From Candidatus Micrarchaeia archaeon (GTDB taxonomy: Archaea > Micrarchaeota > Micrarchaeia > CABMEP01), in contig JAVZPM010000002.1 in the NCBI GenBank assembly GCA_038881595.1, positions 59,254 through 123,253 of the forward strand: a stretch of 64,000 nucleotides of DNA, read 5' to 3'. Shown piece after piece: positions 36,307 to 63,239 of the stretch. The first letter of the stretch is position 1. Each line of letters opens with the position of its first letter. The position numbers and the translations under genes are program-made. Below the pieces are notes generated by a model. The model searched no databases. It was not told where the DNA came from and saw only the letters and a list, made by a program, of their open reading frames with translations.

Positions 36307-36486
36307 GGGCCAGTAGCTCAGAGGTAGAGCGCTTCGTTCGCATAAACTTTCTTAGAAAGAGAGTTTGATCAAGGAATTTTCTAAGAAACTCTTTATCAAA
36401 TAGTTTCATCAAAATAAGTGATTGAACTTTCCTAACATGAAAGTAGTAAAGTTTCGGAAAACGAAGAGGTCGCGAGTTCGAATCTC
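36307..36486 (+). tRNA. tRNA-Ala (anticodon CGC) with an approximately 108-nt intron at the canonical 37/38 position
   Basis: Exon 1 36307-36342 (GGGCCAG...CTTCG TTCGCA), exon 2 36451-36486 (A CGAAG...CTGGTCC A); G3:U70 Ala identity pair; T-loop TTCGAAT. Confidence 0.8.
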
Positions 36487-36528
36487 GCCTGGTCCATAAT
36501 TAGTATATAATCAATTAGAGAGGTTAAC

Positions 36529-38470: not shown

Positions 38471-39370
38471 TTAATGTAGCAAAATTGTGTCGCATCCTTC
38501 TGGTTCTCCATAATATGCAGGACCGCTTATAACTAGTTTTACATATCCAAGTATCGGTATTCTGAAGATTACCTTTCCTTTTATGTCACTTTCTCTAACA
38601 ATATCAAAATAGCTAATGTCCATGTAGTTATTGTTGTCTCCCTTTGTTAGCAGATAATAACTTTCTCCCACTTTGAGCTTAAGAAATACCCTGTGGACTA
38701 TATCCATGTTTGTATAAGTTCCATTTACATGTGATGCGTAAACTATGACATCATTAGTGAGATTTTCATTTATTTCTTTTCCATTAATATATATTGATCT
38801 AACGCATTCGGGGGAATAACCTATCAGTTTCTTTGTTGATGAAGAAATTCTTGGACACATGCTCTGGCATTTGTAAGTGATACTTCCATTCTTGCTAGTA
38901 CCACATAGAACTTTAGAATTGTTTATGTCATTCAATTCTTCTTCTGTTATTTCAATTGTAGGCGCATTGATATCTTTTGCCTTTATTCCCTGCACTATTA
39001 CAAAGTCTCCTCTCTCATATGATGGCAGGAGAGAGCATGAAACCACTCCACTGATTGGGACAGAGGTTCCAAGCAAAAATGATATAGATGAAAATATAAT
39101 TATTGCAAGTGCAGCAGCCTTCAATATCTCAATTATTTCTTGTTTCCAGCTTGTTTGCGATGCACTTACGTAAATGTCAACAAAAAAATACGCAATAAGG
39201 GAAAAGCCTGAAAGAAATGCGAAGATTATGGACTTTGTCAAAAGATAAAGCACGAACGATATTCCAAAAACAATCAGTAGCAGATTGCTTTTATGTAGTT
39301 CTGTTAGTTTTTCTTTCTGTTTCTCTTCCTTTTCTATTTTTTTTGCATTTTTTTCTAATTTGTCTTCCAT
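38471..39370 (-). CDS. Signal peptidase I, archaeal Sec11 type, with a Cys-containing insertion
   Basis: N-terminal TM anchor; catalytic boxes VVSCSLLPSYERGD (Ser box), DIVHRV (His) and TKGDNNNYMD. Confidence 0.7.
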   Translation of the reverse strand: MEDKLEKNAKKIEKEEKQKEKLTELHKSNLLLIVFGISFVLYLLTKSIIFAFLSGFSLIAYFFVDIYVSASQTSWKQEIIEILKAAALAIIIFSSISFLLGTSVPISGVVSCSLLPSYERGDFVIVQGIKAKDINAPTIEITEEELNDINNSKVLCGTSKNGSITYKCQSMCPRISSSTKKLIGYSPECVRSIYINGKEINENLTNDVIVYASHVNGTYTNMDIVHRVFLKLKVGESYYLLTKGDNNNYMDISYFDIVRESDIKGKVIFRIPILGYVKLVISGPAYYGEPEGCDTILLH

Positions 39371-39510: not shown

Positions 39511-40605
39511 TTACCACATAACTTCTTCTATCATTTCATATGCCTTGTGTTCCTGTTTCTGTGGTTCAAGGTTTCCAAGCAATGATGTGGAGGTAACTCC
39601 GGTCATGATTGCAGTGACAACAACCTTGTCTCCAAGTTCTGGCATGAGTCTTGCTCCCCAGATGACATTTGCATTGTTGTCAAATGCTGCAGTTATTCCT
39701 TCACCAATCTTGGTTGCCTCACCCAATGTAAGATTTGGACCACCTGCTATGTGGATAAGCGCTCCCTTTGCACCTTCATAGCTCACATCAAGCAATGGGT
39801 GTTCTAATGTGCTCTTTATTGCATCCTCAACCTTGTTTGTTCCCTTTCCTTCTCCAACAGAGAGCATTGCAACTCCACCGTTGCCCATGATTGCTCTTAT
39901 GTCGGCAAAGTCAATGTTGATAAGGGATGGGGTCATTATAGTATCAGATATTCCCTTTATTGCTCTTGCAAGTATTTCATCTGCTACATTGAATGCCTCG
40001 TTCATAGGTAAGTTTGGCACGTACTGAACTAATCTGTTGTTGTCAATTACAACTACAGTGTCACATGTTTTTCTTAATTCTTCCAATCCCCATCTTGCCT
40101 TTTCTGTTCTTGCTCTCTCAAGAGAAAATGGGTATGTAACCATACCAACTACTATTGCACCCTCTCTCTTTGCAACCTCTGCAACAACTGGTGCAGCACC
40201 TGTACCTGTACCTCCTCCCATACCTGCTGTAATGAATACTAAATCTGCTCCACTTAATGCCTCTGCAAGCTTGTCTTTTGATGCCTCAGCTGCCTTTCTT
40301 GCAACCTCCGGATATCCTCCAGCACCAAGACCTCTTGTTATGGACTGACCAATTAAGAGTCTCTTGTGAGCCTCTGTTATCTTCAGGTGGTTGACATCAG
40401 TGTTAATTGCTATCGTGTCTGCGGTTTTTATTCCAGATCTCATTATTCTAGTGATGCTGTTGCATCCTCCTCCACCTACTCCTACTACAGTAATTCTGAT
40501 CTTGTCTGATCCAAGGTAATCCTTCTCCGGTGCCTTGGTCGCCTTAACTGTGGTTCCAGATGTAAACGAACTTAGGAAACTTTCCATTTCAACACCCTGC
40601 CTCAA
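39511..40605 (-). CDS. ftsZ: Cell division GTPase FtsZ (paralog A)
   Basis: Tubulin/FtsZ signature [24 protein letters not shown]. Confidence 0.95.
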
Positions 40606-40668
40606 ATTAAATATTATTTTCCACTAAAAAATTAAGTGGAATGGCTGCAAAGCAGCCACTTAACAAAT

Positions 40669-41730
40669 TTAACCAATTATTTCAATGTCACCATATATTG
40701 GTGATTCTACTTTTTGCTCTTCAAGTGGTACTCCAACAACACTTGCACCCTTTACTCCAGTTACGATTGCAACTATTTCTATCTTGCCATCATATCCTGG
40801 AATGAGTCTTGCACCCCACTTGACGCTTGCCGTTGAATCCATTCTTTCAGTTATTATTTCTCCTGCCTTGATTGCATCTCCTAATGTCAGGTCGTTTCCA
40901 CCAGAGATGTGGATCAAAGCACCTTTTGCTCCTTCGAAGTCAACATCAAGCAATCTGTTCTTTAGAACTCCTTCTGCAGCTGCCTGAACCTTGTTTGTTC
41001 CTCTTCCTTCACCTACCGCAATGAAACCAACATCACCTTGAGACATAATTGCTCTTACATCTGCAAAGTCAATGTTGATTAATGAAGGTTGTGTTATCGT
41101 CCAGACAAGTCCACCAATTGCTCTTGCAAGTATCTCATCTGCAACTCCAAAAGCCTCATTCATTGGGAGATTTGGAACCAATTGAACCAGTCTGTTGTTG
41201 TCAATTATAATAACACTGTCTGCATGTTTTCTAAGCATCTGAATTCCTTCGTCTGCTTTGCTTCTTCTTGCCTTTTCAAGTGCGAATGGGTAGGTAACCA
41301 TAGCAACTACTATTGCACCTTGTTCTTTTGCAATTTCTGCAACAACAGGAGCACTTCCTGTACCTGTACCTCCTCCCATACCTGCACAGATAAAAACTAA
41401 TTGTGCATCTTTTAGTGCTCTTTCGATTAAAGGCTTGTCAATTTCTGCAGCCTTTCTCCCTACATCAACATATCCTCCAGCACCAAGACCTCTTGTTATA
41501 GATTTACCTATAAGAATCTTTTGAATCCTTTCATCTAATGTCAATAAGTGCTGATTATCTGTATTAATTGCAATCAGATCAGCACCCTTAACACCATATC
41601 TAAGAAGTCTCTGAAGGGTGTTGTTTCCTCCACCACCGCAGCCCACGACTGCGATCTTAATTCTTTCAACTGGACCAAGATTTGACTCAGCCTCAGTGTG
41701 TCCTGTAACAGATTTGATTAAGCTTTCCAT
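40669..41730 (-). CDS. ftsZ: Cell division GTPase FtsZ (paralog B)
   Basis: [25 protein letters not shown]; second FtsZ directly upstream of the first. Confidence 0.95.
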
Positions 41731-41895
41731 TACAATCGCCTCAATATTGCTATTAATATATAATATTTAAATATGTTTCTTTTTTTCTTTTTTCTTCGTC
41801 GTAAATTTTTTGAAAAATTTTCAATTTTGAAGAAAGAAAATAACTATTTCATACATTTTCAGTTTTTTTGACGGCTCAAAAATAAAAAGATAATT

Positions 41896-41962
41896 TTAAA
41901 AATTTTGAATTATAATTCTTATCATTATATATAAAATTATTAAAAATTTTGAATTATAATTC
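41896..41962. promoter_or_regulatory. Two exact copies of a 23-bp direct repeat (TTAAAAATTTTGAATTATAATTC), 44 bp apart, in a divergent promoter region
   Basis: Copies at 41896-41918 and 41940-41962, between ftsZ (minus) and the DUF134 gene (plus). Confidence 0.4.
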
Positions 41963-42016
41963 ATTTAACTTGTATATTATGTGCTGTCAAAATATAGTTA
42001 GTATTCAAGTGATTAA

Positions 42017-42298
42017 ATGCCAAAAAAGAGAAAATATAGAAAGATAGGTTCAATTCCTAATGTAAGATTATTCAAGCCATTCGGAAATAAAGTAAATCAT
42101 TTAGATGAGATCATATTAACAATCGATGAATTCGAAGCACTAAGACTTAGTGAATTAAACAACCTTAAACAGAAACAAGCAGCAAATAGAATGTGGATTT
42201 CTCAATCTACTTTCAATCGTCTTCTTAAATCTGCTAGAAAAAAGATTGCTTTGGCAATTATAGCAGGAAAACAAATTAGAATTGAATCAAGCAAATAA
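42017..42298 (+). CDS. DUF134/UPF0251 family DNA-binding protein (sigma-70 region 4-like HTH)
   Basis: 93 aa; LTIDEFEALRLSELNNLKQKQAANRMWISQSTFNRLLKSARKK matches the DUF134 pattern. Confidence 0.6.
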   Translation: MPKKRKYRKIGSIPNVRLFKPFGNKVNHLDEIILTIDEFEALRLSELNNLKQKQAANRMWISQSTFNRLLKSARKKIALAIIAGKQIRIESSK

Positions 42299-43468: not shown

Positions 43469-43570
43469 AATCTACACCATACAATATGGCAGAACTAATT
43501 TTAACTTAAAATTTAACGATTATGTTCTTTATATATTTAACGATTTGTTCAATATAATGTAAAATTAGAT

Positions 43571-44500: not shown

Positions 44501-44603
44501 TTTTCACACCATAGATAAGATTTACAAAATAGATAATAATTAGTAAATTATAATTGAAATTAATATTTATAATGTTTAGCAAGCTAATTTTTCTGTTGAT
44601 TCT

Positions 44604-45362: not shown

Positions 45363-45647
45363 ATGATGTCTAAAATCCCTATAAAATTGGATAAAGTGAA
45401 TAAGAAAGATATAGATAAAGAAATTTTAAGAGCAGGAATAATTGCAGAACTTGATGCAATAAATCTATATGAGCAAATGGCAGCATTGGCTCAAGACAAA
45501 AATATAAAAGCTATACTTCTTGACATTGCAAAAGAAGAGAAGACCCATGTCGGCGAGTTTCAAAGGCTTCTTTTGAATCGAGATAAGCAACAGGCAGAAG
45601 AATTAGAAAAAGGAAAGGAAGAAGTAATGAAAGAAGTAGGAGAATAG
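45363..45647 (+). CDS. Small ferritin/rubrerythrin-like helical-hairpin protein
   Basis: AELDAINLYEQMA and EEKTHVGEF (ExxH) suggest a half-ferritin diiron-type hairpin; tentative. Confidence 0.35.
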   Translation: MMSKIPIKLDKVNKKDIDKEILRAGIIAELDAINLYEQMAALAQDKNIKAILLDIAKEEKTHVGEFQRLLLNRDKQQAEELEKGKEEVMKEVGE

Positions 45648-45676: not shown

Positions 45677-45787
45677 GGCCGCAGAGGGGAATCGAACCCC
45701 TGCTTGGAGGTTTCTGCATTTTTGATGAAACTTTCTTTTAGAAAGTTTCTCCACAGCCTCCCGTCCTACCATTAGACGACCGCGGCC
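45677..45787 (-). tRNA. tRNA-His (anticodon GUG) with an encoded G-1 and an approximately 38-nt intron in the anticodon loop
   Basis: Reverse complement: G-1 + GCCGCGG acceptor, anticodon stem GGAGG/CCTCC, loop CTGTGG|intron|A, T-arm AGGGG TTCGATT CCCCT, discriminator C. Confidence 0.75.
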
Positions 45788-47385: not shown

Positions 47386-48192
47386 ATGGTAAAAAGATCA
47401 ATAAAAATAAAAGGTAAATCTGCAAAAAGCAATACTCATTCTAATTCTTCAAAAAAGGAATACAGCCTTTATAAGCTTATAACAAGCAGAAATATCGGTG
47501 CATTGTCTGAAAAGGAACAGGATATTCTTTTTAATGCAAAGATTGCAGTTGTCGGCTGCGGTGGTCTTGGAGGGATTGCTATAGATCTCCTTGCAAGGGC
47601 AGGAGTTGGAAACCTGACCATTGCAGATGGAGATGTATTTGAAATTTCAAATCTAAACAGACAGATCTTTAGTAGCTATTCAGTAATTGGCAAAAAGAAA
47701 GTGGATATAATAAAGAAAAGAGTATTAGATATTTCTCCTTCGACTAAGATTAAAACTTATGACAAATTTGTTGATTCAGAAGAAGCAGCGTTTAATCTAT
47801 TGAAAGGTCATGATGTAGTAGTTGATGGTTTAGATAATGTTCTTTCAAGAATCTATCTTTCAAGAGCAGCAAAGGACTTGCAGATACCTTATGTCTTTGG
47901 TGCAGCAGAAAAGACGAGAGGATATTCAACCATATTCCTTCCAAAAGGTCAGAGCTACGAATCAATATTCATGCTTCCTTCAAATGGTAAGAAAATAGAT
48001 GAAAAATTGAAAGAAAGGTTGCAAAAGGCAGGGGGCTGTTATTCCATACTTGGCATAACTGCAAATATCATAGGTTCAATAGAAGCAATGCAGACCATTA
48101 ATCTTCTCTTAAATAAGCCATATGTGTGCGCTCCAGATTTTATTCATTTTTCTTTATTTGATTCAGTTCCATTTAGAATTTCACCTCTCTAA
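47386..48192 (+). CDS. ThiF/MoeB/HesA-family E1-like protein
   Basis: Nucleotide-binding VGCGGLGG and downstream RQ motif typical of E1-like adenylyltransferases. Confidence 0.85.
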   Translation: MVKRSIKIKGKSAKSNTHSNSSKKEYSLYKLITSRNIGALSEKEQDILFNAKIAVVGCGGLGGIAIDLLARAGVGNLTIADGDVFEISNLNRQIFSSYSVIGKKKVDIIKKRVLDISPSTKIKTYDKFVDSEEAAFNLLKGHDVVVDGLDNVLSRIYLSRAAKDLQIPYVFGAAEKTRGYSTIFLPKGQSYESIFMLPSNGKKIDEKLKERLQKAGGCYSILGITANIIGSIEAMQTINLLLNKPYVCAPDFIHFSLFDSVPFRISPL

Positions 48193-56731: not shown

Positions 56732-56807
56732 TTATTTTAAGATAAATTTGAATATATTAATTCAACTACTTTATGTTTGGTTAATGATTATGTTTGGTTA
56801 ATGAAGA

Positions 56808-60106: not shown

Positions 60107-60213
60107 GCCCCTGTAGCTCAGCTTGGATAGAGCGACTGTCAGACTTAACTTGTTGTTTTGTCTGGTCGAACCTCCTAAGCAGTAGGTCGAGGGTTCAAAT
60201 CCCTCCGGGGGCG
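60107..60213 (+). tRNA. tRNA, probably Arg (anticodon CCU), with a 32-nt intron at a non-canonical position (32/33)
   Basis: Acceptor GCCCCTG/CGGGGGC, D-arm GCTC...GAGC, anticodon stem ACTGT/GCAGT, T-arm GAGGG TTCAAAT CCCTC; a canonical loop (CTCCTAA) forms only if 60141-60172 is spliced out. Confidence 0.6.
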
Positions 60214-63003: not shown

Positions 63004-63115
63004 CCCACCGTAGCTCAATCTGGCAGAGCATCTCGCTGTAGTCCAGCCTGTCAGATCCTCTGACAGTCGTTTTGTAGAAACGAGAGGGTTGCTGGTTCAA
63101 ATCCGGCCGGTGGGA
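63004..63115 (+). tRNA. tRNA-Tyr (anticodon GUA) with an approximately 38-nt intron at 37/38
   Basis: Acceptor CCCACCG/CGGTGGG (C1:G72), anticodon stem TCTCG/CGAGA, loop CTGTAG|intron|A, T-arm GCTGG TTCAAAT CCGGC. Confidence 0.75.
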
Positions 63116-63129
63116 CTTGAAAAAAATGC

Positions 63130-63239
63130 GCTTGGGTGGTGTAGAACCTTGTTGCGCAGGTTCTGCGCACATGGTGCACAGTGGTCTAGCATTGCGGCCT
63201 GTCACGCCGCCGACCCGGGTTCGAATCCCGGCCCAGGCG
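63130..63239 (+). tRNA. tRNA-Asp (anticodon GUC) with an approximately 37-nt intron in the D-loop
   Basis: Exon 1 GCTTGGGTGGTGTAG, exon 2 TGGTCTAGCAT T GCGGC CTGTCAC GCCGC...CCGGG TTCGAAT CCCGG CCCAGGC G; the mature 73-nt cloverleaf requires removing 63145-63181. Confidence 0.65.

Follow-up and report, generated by a model that had tools for sequence, protein, structure and literature searches.

A candidate pair of DUF134 operators beside a tandem pair of FtsZ2-type genes in a Micrarchaeota genome

Several archaeal repressors that negatively regulate their own genes (MDR1, LrpA, Phr, NrpR, and TrmB) have operators between the TATA box and the transcription start. Here we describe a locus with a similar predicted layout in a 64-kb stretch of a genome from the Micrarchaeota (DPANN), called the window below. 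Its close relatives are all Micrarchaeota metagenome-assembled genomes, several with the prefixes JZ, DRTY, and QQ. In the window, a gene for a small DNA-binding protein of the DUF134 (UPF0251) family diverges from a tandem pair of ftsZ genes, here called ftsZ-A and ftsZ-B, and the shared intergenic region of 286 base pairs (bp) holds two copies of a 23-bp sequence, TTAAAAATTTTGAATTATAATTC. The original prediction, made from the DNA letters, was that these copies are a pair of transcription factor binding sites, possibly for DUF134. We consider it likely that the locus as a whole is explained by a pair of DUF134 autoregulatory operators beside an independent, old pair of FtsZ2 genes. The locus would then hold two independent features that are neighbors only in this clade.

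As at the genes of the archaeal repressors named above, a palindromic operator would lie just downstream of a TATA element at the regulator's own gene, there would be two operators per promoter, and the predicted mechanism is blocked recruitment of RNA polymerase. Unlike them, the putative binder here is a DUF134/UPF0251 protein with a helix-turn-helix like that of sigma-70 region 4. Structurally, the DUF134 model is matched best by LuxR/GerE domains and sigma-70 region 4, and LuxR-type dimers also bind inverted repeats; however, DUF134 has flanking beta-strands of its own, it lacks receiver and sigma region 2 domains, and its sequence similarity to these proteins is below family thresholds.

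On the ftsZ side, the nearest described arrangement is cdrS-ftsZ2 of the Halobacteria, in which, according to PMC7439475, the ribbon-helix-helix regulator CdrS is co-transcribed with ftsZ2. Both loci place a gene for a small DNA-binding protein beside an FtsZ2-type gene, but the window locus differs: DUF134 has a helix-turn-helix, lies on the opposite strand in divergent orientation, appears to be served by operators of its own, and adjoins ftsZ in no clade but this one. Compared with archaeal FtsZ2 (Haloferax volcanii HVO_0581; Liao et al.), the window proteins have the same domain architecture, the DNN triplet, a short N-terminal tail with an aromatic or aliphatic residue plus Gly, an N-terminal amphipathic motif, and within-family levels of identity. 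They differ in that the two FtsZ2-type genes are in tandem and that their C-terminal tails are unlike each other (YGDIEIIG in A, EMIEEVMW in B). As a system, a helix-turn-helix repressor that controls its own gene next to duplicated cytoskeletal genes is of an ordinary kind, and its specific novelties are modest; neither the DUF134 nor the FtsZ point overturns current understanding.

The repeated palindrome and the DUF134 family

The two copies of TTAAAAATTTTGAATTATAATTC are exact and start 44 bp apart (Table 1). Two matches occurred in 0 of 100 dinucleotide shuffles. TTAAAAATTTTGAATTATAATTC is also the longest exact direct repeat in the window with copies <200 bp apart; the next longest is 17 bp, and 17 bp was likewise the longest such repeat in 100 shuffles that kept the composition of 500-bp blocks. 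Thus, the predicted 23-bp repeat is confirmed and exceeds what shuffled sequence yields. Nor is it a common simple repeat, as no further copy was found in the 64-kb window at ≤3 mismatches. Each copy ends in a perfect palindrome, GAATTATAATTC. In copy 1 the perfect palindrome is 12 bp long (positions 41907-41918), and copy 2 plus its flanks forms a perfect palindrome of 14 bp, TGAATTATAATTCA.

We compared the orthologous DUF134-ftsZ intergenic regions of 11 distinct loci (L002-L006, L082, L083, and L162-L165). Both palindromes were present in all 11, with a center-to-center distance of 42 to 45 bp. In an alignment of seven sequences, the mean pairwise identities of the palindromes were 0.93 and 0.89, whereas the 21-bp spacer that separates them had 0.52 and the flanks had 0.48 to 0.65. 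In three loci (L002, L004, and L005) the same A-to-T change appears in both palindrome copies. Of the 21 modules, 16 have the sequence TT[TAG]AAAA within 16 nucleotides (nt) of the palindrome on the DUF134-upstream side, and none has it on the opposite side; these counts are descriptive because the loci are related. Because the TATA-like element stands on one side only, the module is directional, which explains why the repeat is a direct one and spans 23 bp instead of 12 bp.

The DUF134 protein of the window matches PF02001 at 80.4 bits (cut-off, 27), scores 71 against the cut-off of 115 for PRK04217 (an NCBIfam equivalog), and has a weak match to the Pfam family Sigma70_r4_2 that is below the curated cut-off. 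Its AlphaFold model has a predicted local distance difference test score (pLDDT) of 79, rising above 90 across the helix-turn-helix, and superposes on the DNA-binding domains of sigma-70 region 4, LuxR/NarL, and SorC/DeoR at 0.6 to 0.9 Å over about 47 residues.

We took 80 loci encoding DUF134 relatives from metagenomes and searched their upstream regions for the palindrome. GAAT-N4-ATTC occurs 26 times in 82 distinct 200-bp regions upstream of DUF134, versus 0.7 expected (maximum of 4 in 200 shuffles). For the 14-bp form TGAxy-N4-y'x'TCA there are 32 occurrences, spread over 28 of 85 distinct 200-bp upstream regions; shuffles gave 0.48 ± 0.67, with a maximum of 3. In 77 distant loci, 102 of the 123 boxes are ≤1 kb upstream of DUF134 and 9 are downstream. 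Single boxes were found in 13 distant loci, 15 to 18 nt before the DUF134 ATG and directly after a TTTAAATA box. There are also 25 distinct box pairs, 18 of them exactly 24 bp apart, and most pairs share one layout, cGAAAgcTTTAAATA-N6-TGAATATATATTCA-N10-TGAATnnnnATTCA-N5-GGAGGTG-N7-ATG, which reads as a transcription factor B recognition element and TATA box (BRE/TATA), box, box, and Shine-Dalgarno sequence. In the loci that were checked, this layout precedes a small DUF5320 gene, followed by DUF134, sometimes with an EncFtn-like gene between them. Since the distance from TATA box to start in archaea is usually about 26 nt, box 1 would fall between the TATA box and the start, and box 2 just downstream of the start, which is the layout of a repressor. 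The clade of the window differs from these distant loci in that the unit of TATA element plus operator is repeated 44 bp apart, instead of two boxes lying 24 bp apart around one start.

The sequence of the half-site covaries with a Gln/Arg position in the recognition helix of DUF134. Where the helix reads ISQPTF, the boxes are TGAAT; in a few proteins it reads ISRPTF, ISRQTF, or VSRPTY, and these go with TGAGC or TGAAC boxes behind bacterial-type -35/-10 promoters. The Gln or Arg is thus a candidate specificity-determining residue, which would be a modest novelty. We read the palindromes as operators because of these three lines of evidence, namely, conservation among orthologous loci, the link between box and DUF134 across the family, and the covariation of protein and DNA. 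On the same grounds the 23-mers stand as a predicted transcription factor binding pair, with DUF134 as the best candidate binder.

DUF134/UPF0251 proteins are small DNA-binding proteins that are widespread in archaea and bacteria, and we found no paper characterizing DUF134 or UPF0251 in the searchable literature. The locus led to a candidate family-wide operator, TGAAT-N4-ATTCA, which would be the first motif for this uncharacterized family of regulators, and to a stereotyped promoter layout. This box stands at the promoters of DUF134 genes or operons in some 70 unrelated loci from metagenomes.

Some further observations concern the family. Box-bearing operons elsewhere sit, in some loci, among genes for FeoAB, ZIP, NifX-like proteins, and Mrp/NUBPL iron-sulfur (Fe-S) ATPases. 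In the window, an EncFtn-like (ferritin-like) gene lies at 45363-45647, 3 kb from DUF134; in distant lineages such a gene is found inside the box-controlled DUF5320-DUF134 operon (e.g., L087, 2758-3000). The EncFtn-like gene near the window DUF134 may be a remnant of ancestral linkage. No DUF5320 homologue was found in the window. Some DUF134 proteins (P0298 and P0300; L006, 3157-3672) are extended by a Gly/Arg-rich linker and, at the C terminus, a CxxC...CxxC domain that may sense metal; this extension is missing from the window protein. In "Candidatus Micrarchaeum" sp. (L006), the short and the long forms of DUF134 are both present. Three other sites in the window were rejected as boxes: the GAAT-N4-ATTC matches at 47959 and 62147 fall within open reading frames (ORFs), do not have the outer T/A, and are no more frequent than chance would give, and the look-alike TAAATTATAATTGA (44546-44559), upstream of the unit with the EncFtn-like gene, is not kept as a box in relatives.

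Proposed autoregulation by DUF134 and the question of ftsZ control

In the model that we propose, each 23-bp repeat would be a promoter-operator module consisting of a TATA-like box, 3 nt, and the 14-bp palindrome TGAATTATAATTC(A), and both modules would point toward the DUF134 gene. A DUF134 dimer would bind each palindrome through its helix-turn-helix. The palindromes would lie between the TATA-like elements and the two predicted starts (Table 1), bound DUF134 would block the recruitment of RNA polymerase, and through this block DUF134 would repress its own gene. Switching off its own gene is the most likely role of DUF134. Binding, repression rather than activation, the positions of the starts, and the co-transcription of the ftsZ genes are what we infer from the sequence. 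The Shine-Dalgarno-like GTGAT precedes the DUF134 ATG in all orthologues, and a leader is therefore needed in any case. A strict helical-phasing or looping arrangement of the two boxes is not favored, because the distance between them is not constant (42 to 45 bp) and a TATA-like element accompanies each of them.

Four points count against this model. The boxes start 55 to 212 bp before the DUF134 ATG here, and the modules therefore require leaders of the predicted lengths (Table 1), whereas in the distant loci the boxes overlap a short leader. The gap from TATA element to box is 3 to 5 nt here versus 6 nt in the stereotyped promoters. The operator model rests on sequence comparison and a predicted structure. 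Finally, the loci counted as conserved are mutually related, and the counts, including those for the ftsZ genes below, are not of independent events.

The leading alternative is that the box pair is a shared control region from which DUF134 also regulates the divergent ftsZ-A and ftsZ-B, making it a cell division regulator analogous to CdrS, whose gene lies upstream of ftsZ2 in haloarchaea. DUF134 adjoins ftsZ only in this genus-level clade (14 loci), but there the order DUF134 <-> ftsZ-A-ftsZ-B is kept in 14 of 14. Moreover, in some distant lineages box pairs stand in divergent intergenic regions beside feoAB or ZIP transporter genes, and regulatory genes beside ftsZ2 are a known theme in the literature. 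Against this, the boxes are 177 to 232 bp upstream of the ftsZ-A ATG and >130 bp from the ftsZ-A TATA box, and the TATA-like elements that flank them all face away from ftsZ. Outside the clade, ftsZ-A has no DUF134 beside it; its upstream neighbors in other Micrarchaeota are DNA ligase, PIN/antitoxin pairs, or other genes. Elsewhere the boxes track DUF134 and not ftsZ. DUF134 is also a helix-turn-helix protein, not ribbon-helix-helix, and its gene is not co-transcribed with ftsZ.

The ftsZ genes appear to have a promoter of their own. The block at 41731-41785, which contains the predicted TATA box of ftsZ-A, has a mean pairwise identity of 0.91 in 7 loci, and its TATA consensus, TTTAAATA, agrees with the promoters of distant DUF134 loci. 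Transcription is predicted to start near 41741, with a leader of about 11 nt that contains GAGG. Farther upstream, a second conserved element, CTTCGTCGTAAA, lies in a block (41793-41806) with an identity of 0.85 versus about 0.6 in neighboring sequence, and it is kept even in the more distant L006, L083, and L162-L165. As a possible site of regulation specific to ftsZ, CTTCGTCGTAAA is more convincing than the 23-mers. A scan for sigma-70 promoters and terminators was uninformative for an archaeon. The repeat had been placed in a divergent promoter shared with ftsZ, but a role as the ftsZ promoter does not hold, given the fully conserved TATA promoter before ftsZ-A and the direction of the box TATA-like elements toward DUF134. 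Taken together, these findings speak against the boxes controlling ftsZ, and we regard joint regulation as unlikely.

A related scenario, also quite unlikely in our judgment, is that in a Micrarchaeum-like DPANN lineage a sensor-less DUF134 was recruited beside twin FtsZ2 genes, coupling the division genes to the DUF134 signal through the shared 286-bp region. If it were true, the expression of division genes would follow that signal. Elsewhere the box operons lie among genes related to iron and Fe-S (EncFtn-like in addition to those listed above).

A further alternative is that the palindromes are operators of a different factor encoded elsewhere and that DUF134 is merely its target. Operator binding by DUF134 is itself deduced from sequence, and many regulators recognize A+T-rich palindromes. 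However, DUF134 is the sole gene common to all contexts of the box (the monocistronic gene here, the 13 loci with a box directly before DUF134, and about 25 DUF5320-DUF134 operons), and the half-site changes with a residue of the DUF134 recognition helix. These facts make a foreign factor improbable. That the 23-mer pair is a neutral recent microduplication or a low-complexity coincidence is scarcely credible, for in spite of the high A+T content of the region and the identity of the two copies in this strain, the pair is kept in 11 species-level loci while the 21 bp between and the flanks diverge, and the chance expectation from shuffles is far exceeded. Autoregulation of DUF134 thus remains the reading that we prefer.

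The tandem ftsZ genes

As originally predicted, two full-length ftsZ genes stand in tandem; both are complete ORFs, head-to-tail on the minus strand, and both proteins match the Pfam domains PF00091 (Tubulin) and PF12327 (FtsZ_C). They score 369 and 417 bits against the FtsZ equivalog TIGR00065 (cut-off, 295). The two proteins are 59% identical, which excludes an assembly duplication of near-identical copies. ftsZ-B evolves faster than ftsZ-A. In the public record, FtsZ-A is encoded on contig JAVZDM010000001.1 (assembly GCA_038873915.1). The interval of 63 bp first given for the pair has to be revised, since it depends on a TTG start at 40605 (mechanical ORF, 39511-40605). The public gene call uses the ATG at 40587, the resulting N terminus, MESFLSS, is kept among homologues, and with this start the spacer between the genes is 81 bp.

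ftsZ-A and ftsZ-B are probably co-transcribed from the conserved ftsZ-A promoter. A conserved GAGGCAGGGTG precedes the ftsZ-B ATG, and ftsZ-B would therefore be translated from a transcript that starts upstream. The spacer contains two adjacent hairpins (Table 1); the one with the 9-bp stem begins directly past the ftsZ-A stop codon and the 5-bp hairpin is next. Three hairpin pairs show compensatory changes among six close relatives. RNAalifold gave a two-hairpin consensus in the six close relatives and none across nine ftsZ-A/ftsZ-B spacers, because in distant species the G+C-rich hairpin at this position is a different one; some of these species have only a spacer of 17 to 27 nt with a Shine-Dalgarno sequence. 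The fold of the window spacer as a single sequence was not significant (z = -1.67). From their position and conservation, the hairpins may be an intercistronic stabilizer or a partial terminator, and the conserved hairpin and T-run between the genes probably adjust the ratio of A to B.

The archaeal FtsZ families are distinguished by short motifs. FtsZ2 has a DNN triplet in T6-H6, where FtsZ1 and bacterial FtsZ have triplets of the PN[DE] type, and the N-terminal tail of FtsZ2 is short and closes with a D/E-rich motif containing F-G, at the place of the H0 motif DEELEEVLEDLK of FtsZ1 (Liao et al., supplement). In the window the triplet is DNN in both A (IIDNNRL) and B (VIDNNRL); in the same column, Methanocaldococcus jannaschii FtsZ1 has PNE and an FtsZ1 of the relative L030 has PND. 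The N-terminal tails are also of the FtsZ2 type, ...AESNLGP in A (...QDSFGSD in its orthologues) and ...EKDYLGSD in B. The H0 motif of FtsZ1 (DEELxxxL) is absent from A and B and was seen only in the L030 FtsZ1, as DEELLKFL. This third FtsZ gene of L030, about 4 kb upstream of the tandem pair of that locus, carries AEDEELLKFLESTK and IPNDKL. An ORF beside it was read by eye, without a family search, as Spt5/NusG; such a neighbor would match the ftsZ1 context reported in the literature, which is translation and transcription genes.

Identities in the core point the same way. The identity of the third copy of L030 to M. jannaschii FtsZ1 is 59%; for A and B the values are 44 to 48% against M. jannaschii FtsZ1 and 39 to 42% against the L030 copy. 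A and B are 54 to 64% identical to each other and 52 to 56% identical to a DNN-type FtsZ whose cluster has Lokiarchaeota members. The published averages for overall identity (54% within FtsZ1, 51% within FtsZ2, and 44% between the two) agree with these values. According to the same published table, Lokiarchaeum has just an FtsZ2, and "Ca. Micrarchaeum acidiphilum" ARMAN-2 has two members of each family. Because of the DNN triplet, the FtsZ2 N-terminal tail, the levels of identity, and the presence of a third, canonical FtsZ1 elsewhere, we place the two window genes, with good confidence, in the FtsZ2 family. No FtsZ1 was found in the window, and the canonical FtsZ1 would be encoded outside it. 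The Micrarchaeota would thus carry an old tandem pair of the FtsZ2 type in addition to FtsZ1, and the recognition of this pair is a modest novelty.

Three points weigh against this assignment. It was made from motifs, identity levels, and context, with no labeled FtsZ2 sequence in the comparison: a search for H. volcanii FtsZ1 and FtsZ2 with published antigen peptides gave no candidates, and nearly none of the clusters of the nearest 50%-identity representatives has a labeled name (one is that with the Lokiarchaeota proteins). Two public annotations call A-type orthologues "FtsZ 1," although these names are automatic. In a neighbor-joining tree with 100 bootstraps, A and B do not come out as sister clades; the A clade has a support of 100, the B clade is weak, and the deep nodes are without support. 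The tree does place A and B among DNN-type sequences, and we used it as weak support only.

The framing of the pair as FtsZ1 versus FtsZ2 is therefore not supported, as both appear to be of the FtsZ2 type. That they are nevertheless a classical FtsZ1 and FtsZ2 side by side is highly improbable. Most archaea do carry one FtsZ of each family, the automatic names agree, and M. jannaschii FtsZ1 is the best solved-structure match of both proteins, with no FtsZ2 structure among the matches listed. But A and B share the motifs of FtsZ2, the true FtsZ1 of L030 (with H0, PND, and the putative Spt5/NusG neighbor) is distant from both, and the identity of A to B is at the within-family level.

The C-terminal ends of the two proteins differ. 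Compared with the FtsZ2 motif LGIDVIR, the end of A, YGDIEIIG, is related and conserved across the phylum, but that of B, YEMIEEVMW, is not recognizable. The A tail, Y-x-D-I-E-[IV]-I-G across the Micrarchaeota, resembles the archaeal SepF-binding "GID" motif, whereas the B tails are different and variable (40669-40700 for A; 39511-39540 for B). This suggests that only one of the two paralogues is anchored, and the two might form a heteropolymer or share out anchoring and constriction between them.

The original prediction had held tandem FtsZ genes to be unusual. A scan that covered one genome per species gave 80 Micrarchaeota loci for analysis. A B-type gene is on the same strand ≤400 bp downstream of ftsZ-A in 37 of the 80, so the layout is not unusual in this phylum. 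In 7 loci a second copy lies 0.4 to 4.2 kb downstream, in 30 there is none within a flank of at least 1.5 kb, and in the other 6 the flank is too short to judge. Identities of the orthologues to the window proteins are 68 to 100% for A and 51 to 100% for B, each being nearer its own type than the other. Since the pair is in tandem in 37 of the 80 species loci, the duplication is old; by these sequence comparisons it predates the diversification of the sampled Micrarchaeota, and the pair is common in the phylum.

Two variants of the arrangement were seen. A conserved ORF of 28 to 31 codons (e.g., MEIKERKVALRSLLESMNRELEEDDESG) lies between ftsZ-A and ftsZ-B in several other Micrarchaeota (L010, between 3432 and 3726; L012 and L015, between about 7062 and 7224) and is not in the window. 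Three cluster representatives (P0121, P0122, and P0123; 744 to 840 amino acids) have two FtsZ cores in one polypeptide, and tandem FtsZ genes are therefore sometimes fused or were merged by gene calling.

Feature coordinates and other observations in the window

The features discussed above are collected in Table 1, together with two further conserved elements that lie on either side of the candidate operators.

Table 1. Positions of genes, predicted promoter elements, and candidate operators in the ftsZ-DUF134 region of the window
Feature	Position	Strand	Details
ftsZ-B, downstream FtsZ2-type paralogue	39511-40587	-	358 amino acids from ATG at 40587; N terminus MESFLSS
Spacer hairpin, 5-bp stem	40621-40639	-	T6-7 run in loop; adjacent to 9-bp hairpin
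Spacer hairpin, 9-bp stem	40641-40659	-	G+C-rich stem
ftsZ-A, upstream FtsZ2-type paralogue	40669-41730	-	353 amino acids; intact G-box and T7 motifs; conserved tail YGDIEIIG
Predicted TATA box of ftsZ-A core promoter, TTTAAATA	41764-41771	-	about 37 nt before ATG
Conserved element CTTCGTCGTAAA	41794-41805	.	about 25 nt upstream of ftsZ-A TATA box
Palindrome TTTTTGA-CGGC-TCAAAAA	41865-41882	.	left of the operator pair; conserved in orthologous loci
23-mer copy 1, candidate distal promoter-operator module	41896-41918	+	TATA-like TTTAAAAA at 41895-41902; DUF134 box at 41906-41919, with TGAATTATAATTC at 41906-41918
Module 1 (distal), predicted transcript	start about 41925	+	predicted leader about 92 nt
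23-mer copy 2, candidate proximal promoter-operator module	41940-41962	+	TATA-like ATTAAAAA at 41939-41946; DUF134 box TGAATTATAATTCA at 41950-41963
Module 2 (proximal), predicted transcript	start about 41969	+	predicted leader about 48 nt
Conserved TGTGCTGTCAAAA	41980-41992	.	partial inverted copy of the 41865-41882 element; inside predicted DUF134 leader
DUF134 (UPF0251) gene	42017-42298	+	93 amino acids; helix-turn-helix; recognition helix WISQSTFNRLL; Shine-Dalgarno-like GTGAT at 42009-42013

A signal peptidase (S26)-like gene (38471-39370) follows ftsZ-B on the same strand, and this order is kept in all close relatives with enough flank (L001-L004, L006, L162, L164, and L165). Rfam gave no RNA family in the ftsZ-DUF134 region. 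Elsewhere in the window it gave five extra tRNA matches, all missed by ARAGORN, at 36307-36496, 45677-45786, 60107-60213, 63004-63115, and 63172-63231. Four of these span 107 to 190 nt, far above a normal tRNA, and presumably hold long or unusual introns; the match at 63172-63231 is a partial match of 60 nt. The window also contains an exact tandem repeat of two 17-bp units between two convergent ORFs (56771-56804) and a repeat of two 24-bp units, 86% matching, upstream of the sua5 gene (43511-43556).

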